Part shown: piece after piece, positions 1 to 46,124 of the stretch
How the letters are laid out: each line of letters begins with the position of its first letter
Position numbering within the stretch: position 1 is the stretch's first letter
Virus record (IMG/VR): IMGVR_UViG_2547132255_000002
Source: a virus
Lineage: Duplodnaviria; Heunggongvirae; Uroviricota; Caudoviricetes
DNA length: 46,124 nt
Strand: one strand, 5' to 3'
Translations under genes and position numbers: made by a program
The notes under the pieces: generated by a model
What the model saw: the letters and a program-made list of their open reading frames with translations, nothing else
The model's database searches: none
What the model was told of the DNA's origin: nothing

Positions 1-1284
1 CTACTTCTTCGCCTCTGCAACCACTTTGCTACCCACGCCGCGGTTATTGTATTCCCACATGCGGTTGTAGTTAGTGTCATTCAGATTGCGCTGTACTTCG
101 TCGTTATCATCAACGCTGCCGGTGTTACCCGCAAATGGACGATTAGAGATCACCGCATCAGCCCACGGTTTGGCTGTGTTAAAACCTTCGTTGATGGCGC
201 TATCACGGATCACTACCTGACCGTTGGTATTGGCATCAACATCCAGCGAGCGGCCCAGTTGCGCCACGCCATCACCGGAAGCATTGAAACGGCTGTTTAC
301 GGCGAGGAAACCGTAGTAAATGTTGGACAGCGTAGCCGGTGCAAACACATACGCTTCTTGCTGGGTACGGGAGTTCACCACGCGGAATTCGGTGTTATCG
401 AACACCACTGCGCCGCGACCAGAAACGATATCCACATCCCCTTCAATATAGCTGTTGGTCACCAGCGTACGCGGCTGACGATTCGTTTCCAGACGGTTCT
501 GCACACCGCTGTTGGTGACAAAGAAGGTGTTCTGACGACCGAGAATGTTGACGTTATTGATCTGCACTTTGTCGCCATCAGTACGCAGTGCCACCGCCGG
601 ATGGTTACCCGCATCTACGCTATCGCCCAGCGTGTTTTCGATGGTCAGGTTTTGCAGTTGCAGGCCATTGTTTTGTGACCAGAAGACCGCAGAGCAGAGA
701 ACACCGATACTGTCGCTGCGTTTACTCTGGCAGCTATCGTACATATACCACGCCGGTTTACCTGGCATATATTTGCCGCGCGGGTTGACGTCGTGACGCC
801 AGTCGGCAGGGCTCATGCCACCATCAAGGGAAAGCCCAATCTTCACATCAATCGGTTTTTCACCCGTACCGTACAGAGTAATTCCACCCGGAGCGGCAGG
901 GACATACACCGTTCCCTGATACTCACCAGGCATCACGGCAATATACTGGCGCTTGTTGGTACGCTTGATAATTGCCGCATCTACCGCCGCCTGAATCGTG
1001 GTATGCGTTACACCTTGAGTACCCGCCGGGCCGACAACAAAGTCAGGTTGCGCAGGCAGGGTAATCGGGGAAGGATTCCACGCTGCCGCACCTGGTGTCA
1101 GGGATGCAAAATAGTGTTGAGCATCGAAATTCTGCGCTTCTTTTGCCGACAGAATCGGGCGCGAAGAGGTACCAGGCGCGGTTTGATCAGAAGGACGTTG
1201 ATCGGGCGGTGTTGAGCTACAGGCGGTCAGCGTCACGCCAAAAGCCAATGCCAGCGCCAGACGGGAAACTGAAAATGTGTTCAC
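1..1284 (-). CDS. ybhC: Host outer-membrane lipoprotein YbhC (pectinesterase-family), flanking lambda attB
   Basis: 427-aa ORF with lipoprotein signal (LTACSS); lies immediately outside the attL core; name rests on recalled ybhC-attB-ybhB neighbourhood. Confidence 0.7.
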   Translation of the reverse strand: MNTFSVSRLALALAFGVTLTACSSTPPDQRPSDQTAPGTSSRPILSAKEAQNFDAQHYFASLTPGAAAWNPSPITLPAQPDFVVGPAGTQGVTHTTIQAAVDAAIIKRTNKRQYIAVMPGEYQGTVYVPAAPGGITLYGTGEKPIDVKIGLSLDGGMSPADWRHDVNPRGKYMPGKPAWYMYDSCQSKRSDSIGVLCSAVFWSQNNGLQLQNLTIENTLGDSVDAGNHPAVALRTDGDKVQINNVNILGRQNTFFVTNSGVQNRLETNRQPRTLVTNSYIEGDVDIVSGRGAVVFDNTEFRVVNSRTQQEAYVFAPATLSNIYYGFLAVNSRFNASGDGVAQLGRSLDVDANTNGQVVIRDSAINEGFNTAKPWADAVISNRPFAGNTGSVDDNDEVQRNLNDTNYNRMWEYNNRGVGSKVVAEAKK

Positions 1285-1418: not shown

Positions 1419-2489
1419 TTATTTGATTTCAATTTTGTCCCACTCCCTGCCTCTGTCATCACGATACTGTGATGCCATGGTGTCCGACTTATGCCCGAGA
1501 AGATGTTGAGCAAACTTATCGCTTATCTGCTTCTCATAGAGTCTTGCAGACAAACTGCGCAACTCGTGAAAGGTTGGCGGATCCCCTTCGAAGGAAAGAC
1601 CTGATGCTTTTCGTGCGCGCATAAAATACCTTGATACTGTGCCGGATGAAAGCGGTTCACGACGAGTAGATGCAATTATGGTTTCTCCGCCAAGAATCTC
1701 TTTGCATTTATCAAGTGTTTCCTTCATTGATATCCCGAGAGCATCAACATGCAATGCTGTTGGGATGGCAATTTTTACGCCTGTTTTGCTTTGCTCGACA
1801 TAAAGATATCCATCTACGATATCAGACCACTTCATTTCGCATAAATCACCAACTCGTTGCCCGGTAACAACAGCCAGTTCCATTGCAAGTCTTAGCCAAT
1901 ATGGTGATGATTCTGCTGCTTGATAAATTTTCAGGTATTCGTCAGCCGTAAGTCTTGATCTCCTTACCTCTGATTTTGCTGCGCGAGTGGCAGCGACCGG
2001 GTTTGTTGTTATATGGCCTTCAGCTATTGCCTCTCGGAATGCATCGCTCAGTGTTGATCTGATTAACTTGGCTGACGCAGCCTTGCCCTCGTCTATGTAT
2101 CCATTGAGCATTGCCGCAATTTCTTTTGTGGTGATGTCTTCAAGTGGAGCATCAGGCAGACCCCTCCTTATTGCTTTAATTTTGCTCATGTAATTTATGA
2201 GAGTCTTCTGCTTGATTCCTCTGCTGGCGAGGATTTTTTCGTAGCGATCAAGCCATGAATGTAACGTAACAGAATTATCACTGTTGATTCTCGCTGTCAG
2301 AGGCTTGTGTTTGTGTCCTGAAAATAACTCAATGTTGGCCTGTATAGCTTCAGTGATTGCGATTCGCCTGTCTCGGCCTAATCCAAACTCTTTACCCGTC
2401 CTTGGGTCCCTGTAGCAGTAATATCCATTGTTTCTTATATAAAGGTTAGGGGGTAAATCCCGGCGCTCATGACTTCGCCTTCTTCCCAT
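1419..2489 (-). CDS. int: Tyrosine integrase, lambda Int
   Basis: 356-aa product MGRRRSHERRDLPPNLYIRNNGYYCYRDPRTGKEF... matches recalled lambda Int over its full length. Confidence 0.97.
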   Translation of the reverse strand: MGRRRSHERRDLPPNLYIRNNGYYCYRDPRTGKEFGLGRDRRIAITEAIQANIELFSGHKHKPLTARINSDNSVTLHSWLDRYEKILASRGIKQKTLINYMSKIKAIRRGLPDAPLEDITTKEIAAMLNGYIDEGKAASAKLIRSTLSDAFREAIAEGHITTNPVAATRAAKSEVRRSRLTADEYLKIYQAAESSPYWLRLAMELAVVTGQRVGDLCEMKWSDIVDGYLYVEQSKTGVKIAIPTALHVDALGISMKETLDKCKEILGGETIIASTRREPLSSGTVSRYFMRARKASGLSFEGDPPTFHELRSLSARLYEKQISDKFAQHLLGHKSDTMASQYRDDRGREWDKIEIK

Positions 2490-2685
2490 TTCTGATCCTC
2501 TTCAAAAGGCTACCTGTTACTGGTCGATTTAAGTCAACCTTTACCGCTGATTCGTGGAACAGATACTCTCTTCCATCCTTAACCGGAGGAGGGAATATCC
2601 TGCACTCGCGTACCCATCGACGAACTGTTTCAAGGCTTCTTGGGCGTCGCTGGCGTGCGTTCCACTCCTGAAGTGTCAAGTACAT
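2467..2685 (-). CDS. xis: Excisionase, lambda Xis
   Basis: 72-aa product MYLTLQEWNARQRRPRSLETVRRWVRECRIFPPP... matches lambda Xis; overlaps int start as in lambda. Confidence 0.95.
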   Translation of the reverse strand: MYLTLQEWNARQRRPRSLETVRRWVRECRIFPPPVKDGREYLFHESAVKVDLNRPVTGSLLKRIRNGKKAKS

Positions 2686-2903
2686 CGCAAAGTCTCCGCA
2701 ATTACACGCAAGAAAAAACCGCCATCAGGCGGCTTGGTGTTCTTTCAGTTCTTCAATTCGAATATTGGTTACGTCTGCATGTGCTATCTGCGCCCACAGC
2801 ATCCAGTGGTCATAGCAGTCATTGATGTTCTCTGCTTCGATAACTCTGTTGAATGGTTCTCCATTCCATTCACCTGTGACTCGGAAGTGCATTTATCATC
2901 TCC

Positions 2904-2930
2904 ATAAAACAAAACTCGCCGTAGCGAGTT
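2904..2930 (-). terminator. Putative intrinsic terminator on the leftward (pL) transcript upstream of xis
   Basis: Hairpin AACTCGC-cgta-GCGAGTT followed on the minus strand by a U-run (TTTTGTTTTAT). Confidence 0.45.
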
Positions 2931-2964
2931 CAGATAAAAGAAATCCCCGCGAGTGCGAGGATTG

Positions 2965-3249
2965 TTATTCATTGCCGATATTCACCTTTATCGCGAACAC
3001 CTTTACCGGTTTATCACCGAAGTGGGGATGTGTGATTGTCTTGATTTCATATCCGTCATACGGGACGTCAATTCTGCGGCTGGAATCGTCGCGCTTCGGA
3101 TATCCCTTTGTGATAATCAGGCGGTCATACTCGCGGAACATAATTCGCTTATTCCAGTAGTCATTACACAGGCGATACTCTTCCGTTTTCTCTCCGCGAA
3201 TCATGGCATCGAAGTATTCACCTTTAACGGCAAGTTGCAGGTTAGCCAC
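2965..3249 (-). CDS. Hypothetical protein, possible ASCH/PUA-like fold
   Basis: 94-aa ORF; N-terminus LAVKGEYFDAMIRGEKTEEYR resembles the ASCH beta-barrel start motif; recalled similarity only. Confidence 0.45.
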   Translation of the reverse strand: MANLQLAVKGEYFDAMIRGEKTEEYRLCNDYWNKRIMFREYDRLIITKGYPKRDDSSRRIDVPYDGYEIKTITHPHFGDKPVKVFAIKVNIGNE

Positions 3250-3303
3250 GACCTTCCTCCTTTGGCTTGTGAATTTGTATCGTCATGCCGCTTTGAGTGG
3301 TGA

Positions 3304-3528
3304 CTACAACGACAGAACCAGGCTGAAGACTGTTAAGATTGAATGCTTCGTAAAACGAATCCAAGGCCAGCGCTTTTTATTCTTTCGGTTCCACCAACGC
3401 CATCCCTTGCTACAGGCTACACTGACAATCCACTGTCCACTCCTGTAAGCCATATAAAACCAGATGAGCAAAACCTGAAGGAAGGCTATCCAGTCAATAA
3501 TCGTATATTTCGCGAAGGAGTCCATCAC
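3304..3528 (-). CDS. Small hydrophobic (membrane) protein
   Basis: 74-aa ORF whose ATG overlaps the stop of the upstream gene (ATGA coupling); hydrophobic stretch IIDWIAFLQVLLIWFYMAY. Confidence 0.4.
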   Translation of the reverse strand: MMDSFAKYTIIDWIAFLQVLLIWFYMAYRSGQWIVSVACSKGWRWWNRKNKKRWPWIRFTKHSILTVFSLVLSL

Positions 3529-4421
3529 TTCACCTCCTGCTGCGGTGCTGCTGGCATTTCACGCCAGTGCGTAACTGAGTGCGGATCCGGATATTCGGTG
3601 CCATCATCCCAGCGATTGCCATTCCACATTGCAGACCACATCTCACCGTCTTCATACATGACCATTACCGGAATTAACTTATCCGGCATTCGCTCACTAC
3701 AGCTTATCCAACCATCCGGAGTTACCGGATAGTTGCCAGCCAGTCTACGCAAAACAGCCTTAACCGCCTCAATACGGTCATCATCGCAATTTTCCAGCGT
3801 ATCTATGCGGTCGAGCATGATGATGGCGTTATCAATATCAGGATTGCCGGTCCACTCATTACTGCGATTGGATTCGGCAGCCTGGTTGCCAGATGCTGGT
3901 TGATTGTCGGCTTGGCTATAGCTAACAGCACGGCAGGCATCCTCTACGCCTTTAACTGCATCTGCGCAGTAGTTATAGCGATTGCATTCCACTAACTTCT
4001 GCTTGAGATTTTCAATTGCTTGCGCGACATCAGCCTGTATTACCGGCGCTGGCGGAGTGGTATATAGTTTTCGGCATTTGTTTATCCAACCGGCATGGTC
4101 AGGCGTGTCTGTAAAGCGCAAATCGTCTTCGTAGCCCTCACGACTACGTTCTTTCCATTCCGTCCACGGAACACCGCTATTCCAGGTGGGGCGAGTGCAG
4201 GACTGATACAGAACAGGCTCTGATTCCAGCGATGCCAGCACAATTCGTGCCAGCTCACGCACAACTTCAGGGGGCGCGTGACGGTCATTCAGGTCATCCC
4301 ACAGCCGTAGCATGTTATCGCTATCAGGGTTAACATCCTCGTTAGTTCCGGCCAGCGCACTAATAACCTCATCGGCTGCTTCAATAATTTTCTGTGCCTG
4401 TTCTCTGGTAATAGTGGTCAT
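3525..4421 (-). CDS. Hypothetical phage protein with DUF551-like C-terminal domain
   Basis: 298-aa ORF; C-terminal segment (DGWISCSERMPD...VTHWREMP) resembles the DUF551 domain common in lambdoid early-left regions. Confidence 0.55.
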   Translation of the reverse strand: MTTITREQAQKIIEAADEVISALAGTNEDVNPDSDNMLRLWDDLNDRHAPPEVVRELARIVLASLESEPVLYQSCTRPTWNSGVPWTEWKERSREGYEDDLRFTDTPDHAGWINKCRKLYTTPPAPVIQADVAQAIENLKQKLVECNRYNYCADAVKGVEDACRAVSYSQADNQPASGNQAAESNRSNEWTGNPDIDNAIIMLDRIDTLENCDDDRIEAVKAVLRRLAGNYPVTPDGWISCSERMPDKLIPVMVMYEDGEMWSAMWNGNRWDDGTEYPDPHSVTHWREMPAAPQQEVK

Positions 4422-4422
4422 A

Positions 4423-5139
4423 TCACTCTCCTTTCCCCTGAAGCATGGCGTTGCTCCGCTCTATACCATCCAGCGCGATTCGCAGTGCCTGAATTGTGGT
4501 AATGCTATCGTTTGGGGCTATTCCATATCGCTCGAATACAGCGATATGACCGCGCATAATCTCAGGCGTAAGCTCTTTGTAAGCATAAGCAAGAGACTCT
4601 GATGCATTATCCGGCACTACTGGCGATGGCTGTTTAGCTTCTAAATCAGCAATTCTGTCAACCACGGCATCGACAGCATCTGAAAAGCCGAACCAGTTGC
4701 TCCACTCAGGCCTATCCCCGGTTGCTGCAAAATACATATCAGCTAAAGCAGACTCAGCATGGTCACGCTCGTTGATGAGTTGCTCTTCGCTTTTCTCCAG
4801 TTCAGCAATACGCTTACTTCCATCCGCGATTACTCCCTCGTAATACTCGCGTTGCTCGTTGAGTTTTGATTTTGCTTCCTCAAGCTCAACACGCAGCTTC
4901 CCTACCGTTAGCGCAATATCCTCGTTCTCCTGGTCACGGCGTTTGATGTATTGCTGGTTTCTTTCCCGTTCATCCAGAAGCGCCAGCACAATGTGTGGCG
5001 TTATTAAGGACTCAAATTCGGCAACAGCTTGCTCACCTCGCTTGTAATTCTTAATCCCACCTAAATCTTTCGCGTTCTGTGCCGCCTCACGCAGTGCCTG
5101 GTAATTAATTTCGCTCACTGGTTGCCTCCTTTGCGCCAC
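4423..5139 (-). CDS. Hypothetical coiled-coil protein (Ea22-like position)
   Basis: 238-aa ORF, charged coiled-coil-like middle; placement between xis and recombination genes. Confidence 0.5.
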
Positions 5140-5300
5140 ATCGCATTCAGATATTTGTTTTGATTCACGGACGGAAAAGAATTTCTCTTAAGCAATTCCT
5201 CTCTCGATGGCATTGGCTTTACGCGTTGGCGAATAATCATTTCTGCCGGAAGAATGCCGGGATTGTATGCAAGTCCTCTCATGGTAAATTCCTCAGTCAT
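5115..5300 (-). CDS. Hypothetical small protein
   Basis: Internal ATG ([10 protein letters not shown]...) of the 5115-5435 ORF placed right at the stop of the upstream gene; weak. Confidence 0.3.
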
Positions 5301-5589
5301 TACTGATAGCGCCATAGCGTGAGCGGTAATTACGCAGGCGCGGGTCGATATATTCAGGGAAGTGGGTATATGTGGCTTTGCGGAATGGTCGGATTGATGT
5401 CTGGTAAATTCGCTCGCGTTCTTCTTTCTCTGCAAGCCATATACAGTGGCGAGATTCCTTTTCCTCTTTCGTTTCCTGCGGTAGAGACATTATTCGATCG
5501 TAGTTTTTTCTGAATTTATCCAGCACCTCCGATACGGAATTGCCGGAACAGCGGCGCGCGTCATCCGCACCATACAGAGGCGCTGGCAT
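5293..5589 (-). CDS. Hypothetical protein
   Basis: 98-aa ORF in the leftward operon, 16 nt downstream of the exonuclease gene. Confidence 0.45.
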
Positions 5590-5605
5590 GGTTTTCTCCT
5601 GTTGA

Positions 5606-6154
5606 TTATTTAGCTAACTTTTTCCAGATCGCTGAAACGTATTTGGCTTGGTGAATGGCATCATCAAGCGCGTTGTGGCGAGTTCCTTTGAATGGCATAT
5701 CTCGCTTAGGGTCGAATCCTATTACCTTCCCAAGTTCGACGATTGTTCTTACGTCTCGGTCATTCCACCACTGCCACGGAACTGGCTGCCCTGTCAGCGA
5801 ATAACTGTTGCGGAGAATAACGCAGTCAAATGATGCTCCATTCCCCCAAACCTGAACGAATTTGTGGTTAGCGTTCTTTATGATGAATTCAGATAACCAT
5901 GAAAGAGCCGTTGAAAGCTCCTGAGTGTTGCTGGTTAGCGATTTTCTGGCTTCTTCACTCTGTTCCAGCCACCATAAAATCGTTGAAGCGTCAGGACGCG
6001 CCCGATATCGCATTGATGACTCAAGCGAGATATTTACCGAGAACTCTTCTCCTGTTTCTCCGGTATTCGGGTCAAAGAATACTGCCCCAATAGAAATAAC
6101 TGGCGCGTATGGCCCGTTGCCCATTGTTTCAAGGTCAACCATCAAGTGATTCAT
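5606..6154 (-). CDS. DEDDh-type 3'-5' exonuclease (DnaQ-like)
   Basis: 182 aa; Exo I motif MVDLETMG near the N-terminus and Exo III motif HNALDDA near the C-terminus; RBS aagga upstream. Confidence 0.7.
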   Translation of the reverse strand: MNHLMVDLETMGNGPYAPVISIGAVFFDPNTGETGEEFSVNISLESSMRYRARPDASTILWWLEQSEEARKSLTSNTQELSTALSWLSEFIIKNANHKFVQVWGNGASFDCVILRNSYSLTGQPVPWQWWNDRDVRTIVELGKVIGFDPKRDMPFKGTRHNALDDAIHQAKYVSAIWKKLAK

Positions 6155-6162
6155 GTAAGTCC

Positions 6163-6669
6163 TTAAATTGCGTGAATAGCGTGACGAGGGAAGGGGAGAG
6201 TTACTGGTGCAAAGGGTATATCGTCGTCAAAATCCATCGGAGGTTCGTTGTGTTGTGCTGGTGATGATTGCTGCTGTGGCTTCTGTGATTGCCTGCTGGC
6301 TGCTTGTTGTTTGCTGTCGCCAATGCCGCCAAGCATTTGCATCACGCCATTAATTCCGACATGAACCTCGGTTGTGTAACGGTCTTGTCCTGACTGGTCT
6401 TTCCACTTTCTGGTTCTCAGCATTCCCTCGAAATAAATCTGATCACCTTTTTTCACATACTGCCCCACGACCTCAGCCAGTTTCCCGGATACAGCAACAC
6501 GATGCCATTCAGTCAATTCCTTTTGCTCGCCAGTATTTTTATCTCGCCATTGTTCTGACGTGGCTATTGTCAGGTTAGCGAACGCTGTTCCTGATGGTGA
6601 GTATCGAACTTCCGGGTCTTGTCCTACCCGACCAAGGATAATCACCTTATTTACGCCTCTGCTTGCCAT
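6163..6669 (-). CDS. ssb: Single-stranded DNA-binding protein with C-terminal extension after DDDIPF
   Basis: [23 protein letters not shown]... OB-fold core closely matches E. coli SSB; acidic tip DFDDDIPF present but followed by 15 more codons. Confidence 0.9.
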
Positions 6670-7377
6670 TTATGCCGCCTGTTTTAGTTCGTTAACTCTG
6701 ATGTTCATTACCTGAACGCATTTAGCCTGCGCATCCTCATTGCCAGCCATTAATTGCCAGTCATGCTGATAACGTTCTATGAGTTTTTTCTTGTCAGTTT
6801 CTGTCGAAGCATAATCACTGAAGTCTTTCAGGATTTGTTCGCAGTCAACCGATGGAGATTTCTGGTTGGTATTTTCTGGTGATGGTTGATTGCCAGATGC
6901 TGGCATTGCCCATCCCGGCAGCGATGGAGGGGACCAGTAAAATCCTGTTCCATCTTTCAGTTTTGCCCTGTGCCATCCCTGCTTTTTATCGAGAGATGTT
7001 TGTGCGAAACCTTCCTCAAGGTTATACAGATACCGACCGATTCCCCACTGAACGGCAGCACGCTTCATTGCACCGGAACGACCACCTTTGACGGCTTCTA
7101 CCTGCGTGTTTTCAGCAGCATCCCATTTGGTTACCCATTCGGAATCAATCTTGATTGATATGCCGCATTCAACTCCGCCGTTGTTGGGAATATCGCGGTA
7201 TTCATTGCGCCATCCTGCTTTGCCGCAAACATCGTCCAGGCGTTTCATGATTGCCCTGTTCGTGACATAAGCCAGCACCATAGCCCACACCTTGCCATCG
7301 CGTGTTTTACCGCTTTGCTGTATTCGCCATTCGATATCTTCAGGGCTGAATGGCTCATCGAATTTGTTCAAATCCAT
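6670..7377 (-). CDS. Rad52-like single-strand annealing protein (Sak-type recombinase)
   Basis: 235-aa ORF directly upstream of ssb and exonuclease; strong RBS (gaggtg); family assignment from recalled Rad52/22-type prophage proteins. Confidence 0.6.
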   Translation of the reverse strand: MDLNKFDEPFSPEDIEWRIQQSGKTRDGKVWAMVLAYVTNRAIMKRLDDVCGKAGWRNEYRDIPNNGGVECGISIKIDSEWVTKWDAAENTQVEAVKGGRSGAMKRAAVQWGIGRYLYNLEEGFAQTSLDKKQGWHRAKLKDGTGFYWSPPSLPGWAMPASGNQPSPENTNQKSPSVDCEQILKDFSDYASTETDKKKLIERYQHDWQLMAGNEDAQAKCVQVMNIRVNELKQAA

Positions 7378-7476
7378 AATTCACCTCAGAATGGACACGG
7401 CCCAAGGAAATAACGCTGATTTAATACTTCGACTCGGGACAAATTAAGGCATACCCGCATTCCTTCGCGGTCGCCA

Positions 7477-7635
7477 TTATGGCGATACCAGAGAGCTTTC
7501 TGCGTGTACATGCGCCTCTGTAACTTGCTCTCCTTCACTGTGGTTGCAAGTGACATGAATATCTCCTTCGTTGCCGATTAATTCTTTCATCTGACGAATG
7601 AATTCTTCGTCTGACCAGTTATCTGTAAAACTCAT
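7477..7635 (-). CDS. Small protein translationally coupled to cIII (Kil-equivalent position)
   Basis: 52-aa ORF MSFTDNWSDEEFIRQMKEL...; its ATG overlaps the cIII stop (ATGA). Confidence 0.4.
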   Translation of the reverse strand: MSFTDNWSDEEFIRQMKELIGNEGDIHVTCNHSEGEQVTEAHVHAESSLVSP

Positions 7636-7802
7636 GGACGGCCTTGTTGTTTCAAAATATCCCAAAGCTTTTCGAGCAAGCTTTTCATTCTTGGTTGTTT
7701 AAAGTCTGCTCCGGTTAAAATATTTTTTCGTGAATGCTGTACCGATAAAATCGGGTTGAAAGGGCGAACCGATGCCACCCCTGCAATAGCGAACTGTTGC
7801 AT
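7632..7802 (-). CDS. cIII: cIII-like inhibitor of FtsH
   Basis: 56-aa MQQFAIAGVAS...MKSLLEKLWDILKQQGRP resembles lambda cIII (MQYAIAG...SLLERITRKLRDGWKRLIDILNQPG); GGAG RBS. Confidence 0.65.
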   Translation of the reverse strand: MQQFAIAGVASVRPFNPILSVQHSRKNILTGADFKQPRMKSLLEKLWDILKQQGRP

Positions 7803-8026: not shown

Positions 8027-8650
8027 TTATGCGACCTCGGAAGGAAGTCCAATCATCTTATTCAAATCTTCTACCCGTAAAGCAGGAAGTGCTGTACTTG
8101 CTTTATCTGCTTCTTTTGGTAGCAACTCTTTGCTTTCAGGCCAAACTTCAATAAGTCGCTTAACTGTTGTGACTGAGTTCAAAGCAGCCCATACATTTGA
8201 TTCGATATCCTTTTTCTTGGCTTCAAGTTTTTGTTGCAATGCGCAGATTTCATCAAACCTTTTTGTTATTTCGTGTTCTGCGCTAAACATGCATTTATCT
8301 TTGGTCGGAGTAGGGAGCAATATATCTTCGCCGTTGCCGTCTTTCCCATATGAATACCAGCCAACCCTTCTGCCAGATACAGTCAGATAAATTGAAGTTG
8401 AACGGGCATCGCATGAGTAAAATGAACATCCCAGCTTTTCAAGTTCTTCGCTTATAGCCATTAACTTGGATGATAACTGATCCACTTCCTCAGTTTTCTT
8501 TTTACCGCCAAACGCAACAACTCTGGCGTCAAGTGCAAGCTGGTTCTTTAACTTTGTTACTTCTTCAAGCTCAGTGAAAACCCCAGATTTAATTAAAGCG
8601 TTACGAGCGATTTTCTCTTTCATTCTCGTAGTTAAGCGGATTGATGACAT
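8027..8650 (-). CDS. Hypothetical protein in the N-cIII moron slot
   Basis: 207 aa from ATG at 8650 (MSSIRLTTRMKEK...) with RBS GAGAGGA; no family recognised. Confidence 0.6.
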   Translation of the reverse strand: MSSIRLTTRMKEKIARNALIKSGVFTELEEVTKLKNQLALDARVVAFGGKKKTEEVDQLSSKLMAISEELEKLGCSFYSCDARSTSIYLTVSGRRVGWYSYGKDGNGEDILLPTPTKDKCMFSAEHEITKRFDEICALQQKLEAKKKDIESNVWAALNSVTTVKRLIEVWPESKELLPKEADKASTALPALRVEDLNKMIGLPSEVA

Positions 8651-8661
8651 ATTAATTCCTC

Positions 8662-8988
8662 TCAAATAAGTGGTTTGCTGCCTAATTTCATTTTCTGGCG
8701 ACCAACACAAGTCACACCCATTTCACTGCGTGGCTTGCTGTACCATGTGCGCTGATTCTTGCGCTCAATACGTTGCAGGTTGCTTTCAATCTGTTCGTGG
8801 TATTCAGCCAGCACCGTAAGGTCTATCGGATTCAGTGCGCTTTCTACTCGTGATTTCGGTTTGCGATTCAGCGAGAGAATAGGGCGGTTAACTGGTTTTG
8901 CGCTTACCCCAACCAACAGGGGATTTGCTGCTTTCCATTGAGCCTGTTTCTCTGCGCGACGTTCGCGGCGGCGTGTTTGTGCATCCAT
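8662..8988 (-). CDS. N: Antitermination protein N (lambda type)
   Basis: MDAQTRRRERRAEKQAQWKAANPLLVGVSAKPVNRPILSLNRKPKSRVESALNPIDLTVLAEYH... matches lambda N including the ARM. Confidence 0.95.
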   Translation of the reverse strand: MDAQTRRRERRAEKQAQWKAANPLLVGVSAKPVNRPILSLNRKPKSRVESALNPIDLTVLAEYHEQIESNLQRIERKNQRTWYSKPRSEMGVTCVGRQKMKLGSKPLI

Positions 8989-31609: not shown

Positions 31610-33563
<1,954 letters not shown>

Positions 33564-39484: not shown

Positions 39485-39672
39485 AAAACCGCAGATGTTG
39501 TTTTTGTGGGTGTAGTAAAGAAACGACTGGCAGGGGCTTTGTTGTGTCAAAAAATACCGAAGAAGCAATTTGTGACTCATGCGTTACAGATATTGTTATT
39601 TTCATGCATGGCGAGAAGGGGTTAGATGAAAAGCTAGAGAGTATTCCAGTTGAAGGCGCTGATAAAAGTTGA
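39481..39672 (+). CDS. Small Cys-rich protein (putative zinc ribbon)
   Basis: 63 aa with CCFCGC...CDSC; start overlaps arc stop (ATGA). Confidence 0.5.
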   Translation: MKNRRCCFCGCSKETTGRGFVVSKNTEEAICDSCVTDIVIFMHGEKGLDEKLESIPVEGADKS

Positions 39673-39734
39673 AGCCCCAACTGCTGTAACAGTCAGGGCT
39701 TCGGTTGTCGGTAAATCCTTGGAGAAAAACCAAC

Positions 39735-40637
39735 ATGAATAGTATAGCAATTTTAGAAGCAGTGAACACCTCTTACGTGCCTTTCAATGGTCAGCAGATT
39801 TTAACCGCTGTGGCTGCCGGAGTGACTTATGTAGCGATGCGTCAAATTGTGGAAAACATTGGTATAGACTGGACTGGTCAATCTGTTAAGTTGCGTAAAA
39901 TGAAGGACAAATTCAACTGTAGAGATATCTCTATGGTTGCCGCTGATGGCAAGTTACGTAAGCTTTTATGCATACCGCTGAAGAAACTCAATGGATGGCT
40001 GTTCAGCATCAACCCTGAGAAAGTTCGTGCTGACATCCGTGATAAACTGATTCAGTACCAGGAGGAATGCTTTAGCGTGCTGCATGACTACTGGACGAAG
40101 GGAAAGGCAGAAAATGCACGTAAGAAAACATCTGTTGATGACAGGACTCCGCTTCGTGATGCTGTAAATATGCTAGTCAGCAAAAAGCATCTAATGTACC
40201 CAGAAGCTTATGCAATGATTCATCAGCGTTTCAACGTGGAAAGTATTGAAGAGCTTGATGCATCTCAGATACCGCAAGCCGTAGAGTACATCCACAGGGT
40301 AGTGCTTGAAGGTGAATTCATCGGCAAACAAGAGAAGAAAGCAAACGAGCTTTCTGCAAAAGAAGCAAACAGTCTTGTATGGTTATGGGATTATGCCAAC
40401 CGCTCACAGGCATTATTCCGCGAACTGTATCCGGCGCTAAAACAAATTCAATCGAACTATTCCGGCAGATGCTACGACTACGGTCATGAGTTCTCGTATG
40501 TTATCGGAATGGCGAGAGATGTTTTAATTAATCACACACGAGATGTTGATATCAATGAGCCAGACGGACCAACGAATCTTTCCGCATGGATGAGACTTAA
40601 GAATAAAGAATTACCTCCTTCAGTACATAACTACTGA
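39735..40637 (+). CDS. ant: Antirepressor Ant-like protein
   Basis: ~300 aa after arc, as in P22 immI; ATG 39735 has a GGAG RBS (ORF opens at TTG 39705). Confidence 0.7.
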
Positions 40638-40737: not shown

Positions 40738-43683
40738 ATGACAGACATTACAGCCAATGTTGTGGTAAGCATGCCTTCGCAACTCTTCACTATGGCGCGT
40801 TCTTTTAAAGCCGTAGCCAATGGCAAAATTTATATCGGTAAAATTGACACTGACCCGGTAAATCCTGAAAACCAGATTCAGGTTTATGTGGAGAACGAAG
40901 ACGGTTCTCACATTCCTGTTTCGCAACCAATAATGATTAACGCTGCTGGATATCCGGTATATAACGGACAGATTGCCAAATTCGTAACCGTGCAAGGCCA
41001 TTCTATGGCTGTTTATGATGCGTATGGTACACAGCAGTTCTATTTTCCTAATGTGCTGAAGTATGATCCTGATCAGTTACGGCAGCAATTAGAAGACCCA
41101 GATGGAGCGAATAAATACCCAAAACTTCAGATAGCAAGATGGAGAGACAGTTATGATGTAAGAGGTTGGGGGGCTATTGGTGATGGTGTTCATGATGATA
41201 CATCAGCTCTATCAGAATTACTTTCTGTTGCAACAGGTGGTGAAAAGATAGATGGGCGAGGGCTTACTTTTAAAGTATCAACTCTTCCAGATGTCAGTCG
41301 ATTTAAAAATGCTCGTTTTTTATTTGAGAGAATACCGGGTCAGCCTCTTTTTTATGCTTCTGAAGATTTTATCCAGGGAGAGTTATTTAAAATTACAGAT
41401 ACACCGTGGTACAACGCCTGGACGCAGGATAAAACGTTTGTATATGACAATGTCATCTATGCGCCTTTTATGGCTGGAGACCGCCATGGTGTAAATAACC
41501 TCCATGTTGCATGGGTTCGCTCAGGAGATGACGGGAAGACCTGGACAACGCCGGAATGGCTTACAGATTTACATGAAAACTATCCCACAGTTAACTATCA
41601 CTGCATGAGTATGGGGGTTGTCAGAAATCGCCTTTTTGCTGTAATTGAGACGCGGACCGTGAGCGGAAATAAACTGCAGGTTGCAGAGTTGTGGGATCGC
41701 CCAATGAGTCGCAGCCTTCGCGTTTATGGTGGTATAACGAAAGCAGCAAATCAGCAAGTCGCTTATATTCGCATTACTGATCACGGATTATTTGCTGGTG
41801 ATTTTGTCAACTTCTCAAACTCTGGTGTTACAGGTGTTACCGGGAATATGACGGTGACTACTGTTATTGATAAAAATACTTTTACAGTTACGACGCAAAA
41901 TACCCAGGATGTGGATCAGAATAACGAGGGTAGATACTGGAGTTTTGGTACATCATTTCACTCGTCACCATGGAGAAAAACCAGTCTTGGAACTATTCCT
42001 TCTTTTGTTGACGGAAGCACTCCTGTTACTGAGATTCATAGTTTTGCGACGATTAGCGATAACAGTTTTGCTGTTGGCTACCATAATGGTGATATTGATC
42101 CACGTGAGCTTGGGATACTCTATTTCTCTGATGCTTTCGGTTCTCCTGGTAGCTTTGTTCGCAGACGCATACCTGCAGAATATGAGGCGAATGCATCTGA
42201 GCCATGTGTAAAATATTATGATGGCATTCTGTATCTGACGACCAGGGGGACATTAAGTACTCAACCCGGTAGTTCATTGCACAGAAGCTCTGATTTAGGT
42301 ACATCATGGAATTCTCTTCGCTTCCCAAATAATGTTCATCACTCAAACCTTCCTTTTGCCAAAGTTGGCGATGAGCTGATTATTTTTGGCAGTGAGCGCG
42401 CATTTGGTGAGTGGGAAGGAGGAGAACCTGATAACCGTTATGCAGGAAATTATCCAAGAACATTTATGACCAGAGTTAACGTCAATGAGTGGAGTCTGGA
42501 TAATGTAGAGTGGGTTAATGTTACTGATCAGATTTATCAGGGCGGAATAGTTAACTCTGCGGTTGGTGTTGGTTCAGTTTGTATCAAAGACAACTGGCTG
42601 TACTACATTTTCGGTGGGGAAGACTTTCTAAACCCATGGAGCATAGGGGATAACAACAGAAAATATCCTTATGTTCACGATGGTCACCCGGCTGATTTGT
42701 ATTGTTTCAGGGTGAAAATTAAACAGGAAGAATTTGTTTCAAGGGATTTTGTCTACGGAGCCACTCCTAACAGAACGCTTCCTACTTTTATGTCGACGTC
42801 AGGCGTGAGGACGGTTCCTGTACCCGTTGATTTCACAGATGATGTTGCCGTCCAGTCACTGACTGTCCATGCAGGTACATCAGGACAAGTTCGCGCGGAA
42901 GTCAAACTTGAGGGTAATTACGCCATTATTGCGAAGAAAGTACCGTCTGATGATGTTACCGCTCAGAGATTAATCGTTAGCGGAGGTGAAACAACGTCTT
43001 CAGCAGATGGTGCAATGATAACGTTGCATGGTTCCGGAAGCAGTACTCCACGTCGCGCGGTATATAACGCACTCGAACATCTTTTTGAGAACGGAGATGT
43101 TAAACCTTATCTTGATAATGTAAATGCTCTTGGTGGTCCGGGAAACAGGTTCTCGACAGTTTATCTTGGCTCCAATCCTGTGGTTACCAGTGACGGAACA
43201 TTAAAGACAGAGCCGGTCTCTCCTGACGAAGCATTGCTGGATGCCTGGGGTGACGTCAGGTATATCGCTTATAAATGGCTGAACGCTGTCGCTATAAAGG
43301 GGGAAGAAGGGGCGAGGATACATCATGGTGTAATCGCGCAGCAACTTCGTGATGTTCTTATTTCTCACGGACTCATGGAAGAAGAAAGCACAACATGCCG
43401 CTATGCCTTTCTTTGCTATGACGATTATCCCGCAGTATATGATGACGTCATTACTGGCCAAAGGGAAATGCCGCTGACTGATAATGACGGGAGCATCATT
43501 GTTGATGAGGATGATAATCCAGTGATGGTAATGGAAGACATCATTGAGCGCGTTGAAATAACGCCAGCAGGATCTAGATGGGGGGTCAGACCTGATCTCT
43601 TATTCTATATCGAGGCAGCATGGCAGCGCAGAGAAATAGAAAGAATAAAAGCTAGGTTAGACTTAATAGAAGGGAAGCACTAA
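40738..43683 (+). CDS. Tailspike: P22 gp9-like head-binding domain, endosialidase-like receptor domain, C-terminal intramolecular chaperone
   Basis: N-terminal ~115 aa ([43 protein letters not shown]...) match P22 gp9; two Asp-boxes SGDDGKTW and SSDLGTSW; ~160-aa C-terminal tail after a TSD site. Confidence 0.8.
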
Positions 43684-44408: not shown

Positions 44409-44885
44409 TTAACTAAACATCGCAGTAATCGAGGCACTCGCCAGAGAGTGAAAATGAACGTTAAACCCGACCATCGCGCCGCTGGCACCTTCATCGACAT
44501 CAATACGTTCTACATCCAGCGCGTGAACGGTAAAAATGTAGCGATGGGTTTCGCCTTTCGGCGGCGCTGCGCCATCGTACCCGGTTTTACCAAAGTCGGT
44601 ACGCGTCTGCAAAACGCCGTCTGGCATAGCTACCAGACCAGAGCCAAACCCTTGCGGTAATACGCGGGTATCAGCGGGTAAATTAACAACTACCCAGTGC
44701 CACCAGCCGGAGCCGGTTGGCGCATCCGGGTCATAGCAGGTGACAACAAAACTTTTCGTTCCCGCAGGAACATCATCCCACGCCAGATGCGGTGAAATAT
44801 TATCGCCATCGTAACCCATGCCGTTAAAGACATGACGATGCGGCAGCTTATCGCCATCGCGCAGATCGTTACTGATGAGTTTCAT
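44409..44885 (-). CDS. ybhB: Host PEBP-family protein YbhB
   Basis: 158-aa ORF adjacent to attR on the bio side of lambda attB; PEBP-like motifs (DPDAP, HRY). Confidence 0.75.
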   Translation of the reverse strand: MKLISNDLRDGDKLPHRHVFNGMGYDGDNISPHLAWDDVPAGTKSFVVTCYDPDAPTGSGWWHWVVVNLPADTRVLPQGFGSGLVAMPDGVLQTRTDFGKTGYDGAAPPKGETHRYIFTVHALDVERIDVDEGASGAMVGFNVHFHSLASASITAMFS

Positions 44886-44993: not shown

Positions 44994-46124
44994 ATGAAAC
45001 GCGCATATAAATACCGGTTTTACCCGACAACTGAGCAGGCTGAGCTTTTAGCTCAGACGTTTGGCTGTGTGCGCTTCGTCTACAATTCCATCCTTCGTTG
45101 GCGTACCGATGCGTACTACGAGCGAAAAGAAAAGATCGGTTATCTACAGGCCAACGCTCGCCTTACGGCGCTCAAAAAAGAGCCTGAATACATATGGCTG
45201 AATGATGTTTCCTGCGTTCCCCTCCAGCAGTCGTTGCGCCACCAACAAGCCGCCTTTGCTAACTTCTTTGCCGGACGAGCTGCATATCCGGCTTTCAAAA
45301 GCAAACGGCACAAACAGGTGGCTGAGTTCACTGCCAGCGCGTTTAAACACCGTGACGGCGAGTTGTATATAGCAAAGAGCAAGTCGCCGCTGGATGTTCG
45401 CTGGAGTCGAGAATTACCATCTGCGCCGTCAACCGTTACCATTTCCAGAGATAGCGCTGGCAGGTACTTTGTTTCCTGCCTGTGTGAGTTTGAACCTGTA
45501 TCAATGCCTGTTACCGCTAAAACGGTCGGCATTGATGTGGGCTTAAAAGATTTATTCGTCACCGATACCGGATTCAAAACCGACAATCCCCGCCACACCG
45601 CTAAATATGCGAAGCGATTAACGCTGCTACAGCGACGTTTAAGCAGGAAGCAAAAAGGCTCAAGAAACCGAATTAAAGCCCGCTTAAAGGTCGCCCGACT
45701 CCACGCGAAAATCGCCGATTGCCGGATGGACAATCTGCACAAGTTGTCCCGCAAACTGATTAACGAAAACCAAGTTGTTTGCGTCGAATCCCTCAAGGTG
45801 AAAAACATGATCCGCAACCCGAAGCTGTCTAAAGCAATAGCTGACGCAGGCTGGAGCGAACTTGTTCGCCAGCTCCAGTACAAAGGCAAATGGGCCGGGC
45901 GGTCAGTGGTCGCCATTGACCAGTATTTACCGTCCTCAAAATGCTGTAGTTGCTGCGGTTTCACCATGCAAAAAATGCCTCTTAATGTTCGTAAATGGCA
46001 CTGCCCTGAATGCGGCGCAGACCATGATCGCGACATTAACGCGGCACGTAATATTAAAGCTGCCGGGCTGGCAGTGTTAGCCCACGGAGAGCCTGTAAAC
46101 CCTGAATCGCAGCACGCGGCTTAG
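44994..46124 (+). CDS. tnpB: IS200/IS605-family TnpB (OrfB) RuvC-like nuclease, no adjacent TnpA
   Basis: 376 aa; N-terminus MKRAYKYRFYPTTEQAELL typical of OrfB/TnpB; C-terminal zinc finger CCGFTMQKMPLNVRKWHCPECGADHDRDINAARNI. Confidence 0.8.
   Translation: MKRAYKYRFYPTTEQAELLAQTFGCVRFVYNSILRWRTDAYYERKEKIGYLQANARLTALKKEPEYIWLNDVSCVPLQQSLRHQQAAFANFFAGRAAYPAFKSKRHKQVAEFTASAFKHRDGELYIAKSKSPLDVRWSRELPSAPSTVTISRDSAGRYFVSCLCEFEPVSMPVTAKTVGIDVGLKDLFVTDTGFKTDNPRHTAKYAKRLTLLQRRLSRKQKGSRNRIKARLKVARLHAKIADCRMDNLHKLSRKLINENQVVCVESLKVKNMIRNPKLSKAIADAGWSELVRQLQYKGKWAGRSVVAIDQYLPSSKCCSCCGFTMQKMPLNVRKWHCPECGADHDRDINAARNIKAAGLAVLAHGEPVNPESQHAA

Follow-up and report, generated by a model that had tools for sequence, protein, structure and literature searches.

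Accessory genes between xis and the recombination genes have been described in several lambdoid phages. In P22 the gene order is xis-eaC-eaG-eaA-eaI-eaD-eaF-orf45-eaE-orf56-abc2-abc1-erf, and in lambda the exo-xis region, which is transcribed from pL, occupies the corresponding interval. The ea22 gene favours lysogeny despite high sequence diversity, and full-length Ea22 is tetrameric with variable, portable C-terminal domains (CTDs), one Shiga toxin (Stx) phage variant carrying DUF551 (PMC7093339; PMC10834534). The structure of P22 Abc2 in complex with RecBCD has been solved (8B1T; Wilkinson et al. 2022, eLife, PMC9836394), and Abc2 binds to that part of RecC which recognizes Chi, putting RecBCD at the service of the phage recombinase (PMC9836394; Genome Res 2025, PMC12315714). 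In HK446, gp27 (Oad2, related to P22 EaE) is a direct inhibitor of the OLD nuclease, and the locus was described as an anti-defence hotspot (bioRxiv 10.64898/2026.07.10.737580). This study concerns a block of minus-strand genes at positions 2965-5589 of IMG/VR virus record IMGVR_UViG_2547132255_000002, the whole analysed stretch of which (46,124 nucleotides) is called the window. Our results indicate that this block is quite probably the distal segment, 'ea' in P22 and 'exo-xis' in lambda, of a leftward delayed-early operon, in a new gene combination.

A sequence-only reading of the window had reported six leftward open reading frames (ORFs) of unknown function. The minus-strand ORFs were recovered at 2965-3249 (94 aa), 3304-3528 (74 aa), 3525-4421 (298 aa), 4423-5139 (238 aa), 5115-5435 (106 aa) and 5293-5589 (98 aa), and all six genes were assigned to families by Pfam and PHROG searches. 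The description as six proteins of unknown function does not hold for Abc2, which is matched by PF11043 and 8B1T, nor for the 74-aa product, which is a frameshift fragment. As read from the sequence, the predicted order of transcription is abc2, DUF2737, the EaD/Ea22 coiled-coil gene, the EaA-like DUF551 gene, the frameshifted DUF4752 gene and the ASCH-fold gene. The features of the block are as follows.

5293-5589, minus strand: abc2, anti-RecBCD protein 2, 98 aa (PF11043, E=7.2e-60; phrog_656)
5115-5282, minus strand: DUF2737 gene, 55 aa, 168 nt with ATG start, homologue of P22 orf56 / HK97 gp38
5086-5135, minus strand: conserved 50-nt junction ('linker') with the DUF2737 end (KGGNQ, then the stop), the AAAGGAGG Shine-Dalgarno, GTGA and the first 11 ea22/eaD codons
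4423-5118, minus strand: EaD/Ea22-family gene, 231 aa, most likely starting at GTG 5118 (PF13935, E=1.9e-27)
3525-4421, minus strand: EaA-like gene, 298 aa, with C-terminal DUF551 (PF04448, E=7.6e-18; phrog_60)
3242-3525, minus strand: DUF4752 gene, -1 frameshifted, appearing as 74-aa and 40-aa ORFs (PF15944; alignment to HK106 gp31)
3374-3378, minus strand: A5 run, site of the 1-nt deletion (A6 in HK106 gp31 and intact homologues)
2965-3249, minus strand: gene of the supported ASCH fold, 94 aa (phrog_625), last gene of the variable block
2904-2963, minus strand: tandem pair of terminator-like hairpins with U-tracts, separating the ASCH gene from orf55 (stems 2963-2942 and 2931-2912)

The assignment to the lambdoid ea/exo-xis region is based on the xis-to-recombination slot, the pL strand and a content that varies among relatives. 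In transcription the block is preceded by genes of a Rad52-type annealing protein, a single-strand-binding protein (SSB) and a 3'-5' exonuclease (DEDDh), and is followed by the two hairpins, lambda orf55, a third hairpin, pI, xis and int. The genes are closely packed, and the translational coupling proposed earlier could be read directly at the junctions. The abc2 start has an AGGAG Shine-Dalgarno 7 nt ahead of its ATG, and 10 nt separate the abc2 stop from the DUF2737 ATG. The DUF2737 stop overlaps the Ea22-like start (GTGA, 5118-5115) with the AAAGGAGG Shine-Dalgarno ahead, a single base lies between the Ea22-like stop and the EaA-like ATG (TGAtATG, 4425-4419), the EaA-like stop overlaps the DUF4752 ATG (TGATG, 3527-3523), and the DUF4752 stop sits 8 nt within the ASCH gene (8-nt overlap, 3249-3242). 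The sequence-only reading had taken the genes for morons of the ea/b region. The ea part of this placement was right, the b region was not, and morons, i.e. autonomous promoter/terminator units that a resting prophage expresses to the advantage of its host, are a very improbable explanation. The terminator-like hairpins that close the block would suit such units, but no sigma-70-like promoter was seen in 2400-6300 against 4.9 expected, each gene start overlaps or abuts the preceding stop, and the GC content of the block (46-53%) is no different from that of its flanks.

The hairpin at 2904-2930, already placed between the block and xis in the sequence-only reading, is real, its stem at 2912-2931 having a U-tract that extends to about 2904, and a second one at 2942-2963 was added here. 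Jointly the tandem hairpins fold with -26.8 kcal/mol, as compared with -13.9 +/- 2.5 for shuffled sequences (z = -5.1), and they fall inside a lambda-like segment (2400-2968) of 97% identity. Rfam at the gathering threshold gave the sar RNA, far from the block, as its sole hit; at E<=1 two sub-threshold chance hits fell on the hairpins, and a repeat search of 2300-7700 returned short, low-identity pairs only. From the biology of lambda and P22 we infer that the block would be read solely from pL, by N-antiterminated polymerase passing through the hairpins, and because of this it would be expressed early in infection or induction and not from the resting prophage. By the same analogy its genes would be dispensable accessory functions.

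The gene set between xis and abc2 differed in each of the seven other genomes compared (mEp235, HK446, HK106, 720R6, HF4s, P22 and lambda), which bears out the gene turnover suspected earlier. E. coli KCJ3K291 also has its own gene set in the slot, and the content in the phages is as follows.

mEp235: DUF2737 only
HK446: Oad2, DUF2737 and gp29
HK106: a DpdA-like gene, DUF4752 and two HK620-like genes
720R6: ten genes
HF4s: ten genes
P22: eaC-eaG-eaA-eaI-eaD-eaF-orf45-eaE-orf56
lambda, same slot: ea8.5-ea22-orf61-63-60a

Not all of the block is variable, as shown by counts of the phage records that cover at least 80% of a gene relative to the records matching it, among 50,697 phage records. DUF2737 and abc2 together were covered in 200 of 231 matching records and the ASCH gene in 145 of 176, many of them P22-like and Stx phages, while none of the 335 records matching the Ea22-like gene and none of the 318 matching the EaA-like gene reached this coverage. 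Thus abc2 and DUF2737 form a conserved unit, in which DUF2737 travels with abc2. Because they are conserved, and contiguous with the recombination module in mEp235, the truly variable part runs from about 2968 to about 5086, and the variable block proposed earlier between xis and the recombination genes has to be narrowed to it. In a mosaic map against seven loci, the lambda-like module stopped just past the ASCH stop (2968). Despite different genes on its two sides, the junction at 5086-5135 was 85-100% identical in mEp235, HK106, 720R6, HK446 and lambda. In alignment A4 and the junction sequences, the Shine-Dalgarno of the following gene is translated as the C-terminal ends KGE, KGGNQ and QEV(K/NRG), which recur because the exchange junctions encode it. 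Whole genes and sub-gene segments would thereby be swapped among phages by recombination at short conserved junctions. As the record counts show, small genes move as units and the two large genes are internally mosaic. Exchange at conserved junctions has reportedly long been described for lambdoid phages, in the comparative papers on HK97/HK022 and P22.

Abc2 is the sole gene of the block with a known function and mechanism. It matched PF11043 over its full length (residues 1-98, against a profile of 97 positions) with 199.6 bits against a cut-off of 25, matched PDB 8B1T chain A with E=2.8e-54 and was 91% identical to P22 Abc2. By analogy with the published P22 mechanism it would bind RecC and redirect RecBCD to the phage recombinase. 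Functionally, abc2 is a member of the recombination module, adjoining the Rad52-type annealing protein, SSB and the DEDDh exonuclease. The sequence-only reading had counted the 98-aa product as one of two small proteins; both are present, the other being the 55-aa DUF2737 gene and not a protein of 106 aa. The 106-aa ORF with a TTG start (5115-5435) was rejected as a gene: it overlaps abc2, and the PF10930 match (E=4.9e-31) is confined to its residues 52-102. The 168-nt DUF2737 gene is so annotated in mEp235 and E. coli KCJ3K291, and its product is 77% identical to P22 orf56 and 94% to HK446 gp28.

Two further observations concern the recombination module. The annealing protein (6670-7377, minus strand) is chimeric: residues 4-136 match Rad52/Rad22 (Pfam), and its final 70 residues share 68% identity with the C-terminal end of P22 Erf and 36% with the HK446 one, so that a partner-binding tail appears to have been retained and the annealing core exchanged. 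Just upstream of it lies a Gp33 homologue (7477-7635, minus strand, 52 aa; phrog_2123, 'recombinase'), 86.5% identical to Gp33 of HK446/HK75. Gp33 alone triggers the P2 OLD abortive-infection nuclease and was suggested to be a new RecBCD manipulator (bioRxiv 10.64898/2026.07.10.737580).

The two large genes of the block belong to the Ea22/EaD and EaA families. The 238-aa coiled-coil protein of the sequence-only reading was confirmed as such by PF13935 (97 bits, cut-off 27) and by a heptad pattern with 59% hydrophobic residues at the a/d positions in one register. Its start is most likely GTG 5118 (231 aa) rather than the mechanical ORF start at 5139, because the alignment to lambda Ea22 begins there and the AAAGGAGG Shine-Dalgarno precedes it. 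The protein is 72% identical to residues 1-104 of lambda Ea22, i.e. the N-terminus and coiled coil, and 42% identical to P22 EaD. The lambda-type CTD known from the nuclear magnetic resonance structure was not found in it: the lambda alignment ends at residue 118, and with the lambda Ea22 CTD itself only the final KGE aligns. Its own CTD is common to four proteins only (P0241-P0244), and elsewhere its parts are split between proteins. With phrog_4790 ('RecBCD nuclease inhibitor', E=1e-7) the coiled coil gave a weak match that probably reflects coiled-coil composition. The C-terminal DUF551 assigned to the 298-aa protein in the sequence-only reading was likewise found, with 65.6 bits against a cut-off of 22 and residues 237-294 covering profile positions 1-68 of 68. 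The gene is an intragenic mosaic made up of five or more segments. In alignment A3 conserved blocks are interleaved with at least five alternative N-termini and two alternative middle segments, and the DUF551 core is highly variable between the conserved ends WISCSERMP and THWMPLPEPPQE. A protein identical to the EaA-like one (P0121) is listed on 73 contigs. Most likely, the proteins of the Ea22/EaD and EaA families act as conserved scaffolds that would show interchangeable C-terminal domains to host partners.

What these proteins do for the phage can be read in two ways. One possibility, which we hold tentatively, is that the genes modulate the lysis-lysogeny choice, host physiology and host survival as in the exo-xis region of lambda and Stx phages, with the Ea22-like protein as the pro-lysogenic part. 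The published pro-lysogenic effect of Ea22, its tetramer with variable CTDs and the Stx variant with DUF551 agree with this reading, as does the N-terminus and coiled coil that the window protein shares with lambda. The DUF551 protein YfdS was also linked to tolerance of H2O2 and oxidative stress and, in combination with YfdQRT, to inhibiting the initiation of replication (PMC4776307). On the other hand, the lambda CTD is replaced here, the CTD alone is insufficient for the effect according to the literature, the published phenotypes come mainly from multicopy plasmids, and the conserved cassette orf60a-orf63-orf61(-orf73) of lambda and Stx phages is absent from the window, where neither DUF1317/DUF1382 hits nor a nucleotide match to lambda 30.4-31.4 kb was found.

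The other reading takes the block for an anti-defence island, in which besides abc2 at least one of the ASCH, EaA-like, EaD-like and DUF2737 products would inhibit host immunity, the likely targets being systems that fire on RecBCD tampering, e.g. OLD, retrons and Gabija. Oad2 occupies the same slot in HK446 (xis - X - DUF2737 - abc2) and was reported fused to EaD/Ea22 proteins (bioRxiv 10.64898/2026.07.10.737580), the window holds the homologue of the OLD trigger Gp33 described above, and the C-terminal modules of the EaA-like and EaD-like proteins are swapped among phages as an arms race predicts. But mosaicism is common to lambdoid genomes and by itself no sign of an arms race; BLASTP of the block proteins gave no significant hit to Oad2 (HK446 gp27) or P22 EaE, no window protein resembling Oad2; and apart from abc2 there were no PADLOC or annotated anti-defence PHROG hits, with phrog_4790 as a weak coiled-coil lead only. 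We regard this reading as somewhat unlikely. The more general statement of the sequence-only reading, that such blocks often hold anti-defence or host-modulating genes, is sound for the region as far as host modulation goes: the window has abc2, and HK446 has the OLD inhibitor Oad2 in this slot. The immune-inhibitor and lysis-lysogeny readings are compatible with each other and with the assignment of the block to the distal ea/exo-xis segment.

The last gene of the variable block encodes the 94-aa protein that had been called ASCH-like. This name stands on motif and predicted fold rather than on the Pfam score, for PF04266 (ASCH) gave 14.3 bits against a gathering cut-off of 21.2 (E=0.068) and aligned residues 6-28 only. 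The GxKxxExR motif, as defined in PMC6803910, is present between helix 1 and strand 2 (G19-E-K21-T-E-E24-Y-R26), and none of 29 homologues, drawn from many Enterobacterales, differs at G19, K21, E24 or R26. The protein also has an extra invariant patch, T73-H74-x-H76-F77-G78. The AlphaFold2 (AF2) model was confident (pLDDT, predicted local distance difference test, 86) and shows a predicted PUA-like beta-barrel; together, motif and model support an ASCH fold. PDB searches with the protein gave no sequence-level match to solved ASCH proteins. Substitutions in the gene are concentrated at third codon positions. On the opposite strand, the ORF at 2953-3303 (plus) matched phrog_20945 with E=4e-65, and it was dismissed as a shadow ORF, because 22 of the 34 substitutions lie at positions that are third in the ASCH frame and first in the plus-strand ORF. 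Because of this codon-position pattern, phrog_20945 was probably built from mis-annotated genes.

ASCH proteins of the GKTR and GKER types remove N4-acetylcytidine (ac4C) from tRNA via a Lys/Glu dyad (bioRxiv 10.64898/2026.02.27.708502). The window protein has glutamate at the fourth conserved position, as in the GKER type, and it would most likely bind or deacetylate a modified cytidine in RNA. Two more specific ideas can be put forward. In the first, the widely conserved protein would be a phage ac4C eraser or reader, with K and E at the positions of the TthASCH Lys/Glu dyad and with host RNA, e.g. ac4C34 of elongator tRNA-Met, as an early target. In the second, the C-terminal modules of the EaA-like and EaD-like proteins would be specificity domains of fast-evolving immune inhibitors comparable to Oad2, the EaA (DUF551) and EaD/Ea22 scaffolds carrying these interchangeable modules. 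Both ideas are improbable.

Two neighbouring observations also concern nucleic-acid modification. In HK106 (L003), positions 3051-3851, in the ASCH slot of the window, hold a gene annotated as queuine tRNA-ribosyltransferase (DpdA-like), and nucleic-acid-modification functions seem to recur at this slot of the ea region. An Nmad5 protein (nucleotide modification associated domain 5; 8027-8710, minus strand, 227 aa) with a full-length domain match (E=6e-71) is encoded in a low-GC stretch (about 40%), beside and partly overlapping the ORF of the N-like antiterminator and upstream of cIII; the Nmad5 gene and the ASCH-fold gene, whose fold is a modified-base-binding one, are common to one early operon.

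The 74-aa hydrophobic protein of the sequence-only reading has the hydrophobic N-terminus ascribed to it (KD19 = 1.78, residues 8-26), which by its sequence is predicted to be a genuine DUF4752 membrane helix, but it is not a gene product of its own: it is the front half of DUF4752. Residues 9-53 of the 74-aa ORF (3304-3528) correspond to DUF4752 positions 2-45, its final 22 residues are out of frame, and DUF4752 positions 48-84 follow in another frame, within an overlapping ORF of 40 aa (3242-3364); no single intact frame spans the domain. Two public E. coli assemblies (L004, L005), which over 6.7 kb do not otherwise differ from the window, have the A5 run as well, and a sequencing error was ruled out, as these assemblies are independent. 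None of the 490 RefSeq complete genomes carrying the 61-mer around the run matched the A5 form exactly, and the best-matching genomes are annotated with a DUF4752 family protein; for these reasons the frameshift is a private, derived mutation. Programmed frameshifting was rejected, since the run is not a canonical X-XXY-YYZ heptamer and the A5 form is exact in 0 of the 490 genomes. Leaky restoration of DUF4752 by slippage would be conceivable, because a -1 slip on U-AAA-AAG would recreate exactly the intact protein.

The flanks of the block and the genes farther to the right give the setting of the element. The window opens with ybhC (1-1284, minus strand), and the following features lie between it and the block or at the far end.

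1419-2489, minus strand: int, lambda-type
2467-2685, minus strand: xis
2698-2735, minus strand: third terminator-like hairpin (2735-2716) and a TTGC-N6-TTGC box (2711-2698), at the pI position just upstream of xis
2725-2892, minus strand: homologue of lambda orf55 (lambdap35), 55 aa (phrog_676, E=3.7e-40)
44409-44885: ybhB

The TTGC-N6-TTGC box is called a putative cII site in the annotation of mEp235. The orf55 homologue is found in the matching position in lambda, HK106 and KCJ3K291, and it is part of the conserved int-xis module, outside the variable block. Rightward in the window lie an N-like antiterminator, a CI-like repressor, the sar RNA, a P22-type antirepressor, the tailspike and ybhB. 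Because of this flanking and rightward gene content (ybhC, int, sar, antirepressor, tailspike, ybhB), the element is a P22-like (CUS-3-like) prophage that encodes a K1 endosialidase tailspike and occupies the lambda attachment site, with ybhC and ybhB on either side. The sar antisense RNA (39667-39734, minus strand; Rfam RF00262, 94 bits) overlaps the start of the antirepressor gene (39705-40637, plus strand) and together with it makes up a P22 immI region. In the tailspike (40738-43683, plus strand, 981 aa), a P22 head-binding domain is joined to the beta-propeller, catalytic and intramolecular-chaperone domains of K1 endosialidase, which indicates a CUS-3-like phage specific for the K1 capsule. 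Just past ybhB, an IS605-family OrfB/TnpB gene (44994-46124, plus strand) with HTH, OrfB_IS605 and Cas12f1-like TNB domains reaches the end of the window. In GenBank, the E. coli assemblies GCA_026357155.1 and CP165286.1 were identical to region 2400-6200 save one base. The present variant of the prophage seems rare, because at least 80% of the region was covered in none of 5,426 RefSeq complete genomes; no complete RefSeq E. coli genome and no phage record covered 80% of it.

An IS21-family element (31676-33477, minus strand), encoding an IstA-like transposase of 340 aa and an IstB ATPase of 260 aa, lies among the genes of virion and ejection proteins, and given this insertion the prophage is probably defective. 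The block might then be decaying cargo, unselected and without present function. The DUF4752 frameshift, inherited in at least three assemblies, and the IS21 element among the structural genes speak for decay, but the remaining five genes are intact and nearly identical to their counterparts in plaque-forming phages, and the third-position bias of the ASCH substitutions argues against it as well, so that decay is quite improbable for the block as a whole.

Several points nevertheless weigh against our assignment of the block to the distal ea/exo-xis segment of a delayed-early operon. Transcription from pL and read-through of the hairpins are drawn from analogy, and the promoter scan used a crude sigma-70 consensus, with which weak or activator-dependent promoters would go unnoticed. 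Four of the six genes are without a demonstrated function, no NCBIfam or PADLOC match was obtained, and PDB searches with the ASCH, EaA-like and Ea22-like proteins returned nothing useful. The AF2 model of the 298-aa protein, built from a 28-sequence alignment, failed (pLDDT 44). The DUF4752 frameshift and the IS21 insertion suggest prophage decay, under which some genes may be without selection.

The main value of the analysis is a correction, by which an anonymous six-gene block is resolved into known phage families, one well-studied function and one pseudogene. The block also illustrates clearly how the ea/exo-xis hotspot is rebuilt, by exchange via junctions that bear the ribosome-binding site of the next gene. 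An ASCH-fold protein with the dyad Lys and Glu is placed in the early operon of many P22-like and Stx phages (145 phage records), and the recent work on ac4C removal by ASCH proteins makes this directly testable. Since the same type of locus has yielded both the OLD inhibitor and its trigger, the EaA-like and EaD-like genes are reasonable anti-defence candidates.

As compared to the known systems, the block is like the P22 ea region in its position and strand and in the order of the EaA-like gene, the EaD-like gene, orf56/DUF2737 and abc2, and the prophage shares with P22 the sar RNA, the antirepressor domains and the head-binding N-terminus of the tailspike. Unlike P22, the window is without eaC, eaG, eaI, eaF and eaE and has ASCH, DUF4752 and lambda orf55; its recombination module is composed of a Rad52-type single-strand annealing protein (SSAP), SSB and DEDDh exonuclease instead of erf/abc1/arf, and the resemblance to P22 EaA is limited to the DUF551 C-terminal end (33% identity), with 42% for EaD. 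The lambda exo-xis region likewise occupies the interval from xis to the recombination genes; up to 2968 the window shows 97% identity to lambda over int-xis-orf55 and the two hairpins, and the identity is 72% for the N-terminus and coiled coil of Ea22. In contrast to lambda, ea8.5, orf60a, orf61, orf63 and orf73 are missing, the Ea22 CTD is another one, and abc2 takes the place of gam as the anti-RecBCD gene. The layout xis - accessory gene(s) - DUF2737 - (gp29) - abc2 - ... - SSAP - gp33 is that of the HK446/HK75 hotspot, with identities to HK446 of 94% for DUF2737, 97% for abc2 and 86.5% for gp33, whereas the slot here is without an Oad2 homologue and holds the Ea22-like, EaA-like, DUF4752 and ASCH genes. 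The ASCH-fold protein shares GxKxxExR with the superfamily members YqfB, TthASCH, EOLA1 and ZmASCH, at the same residue numbers as in EOLA1, and differs from them in scoring below the Pfam threshold, in being shorter (94 aa) and phage-borne, and in its extra T73-H74-x-H76-F77-G78 patch.

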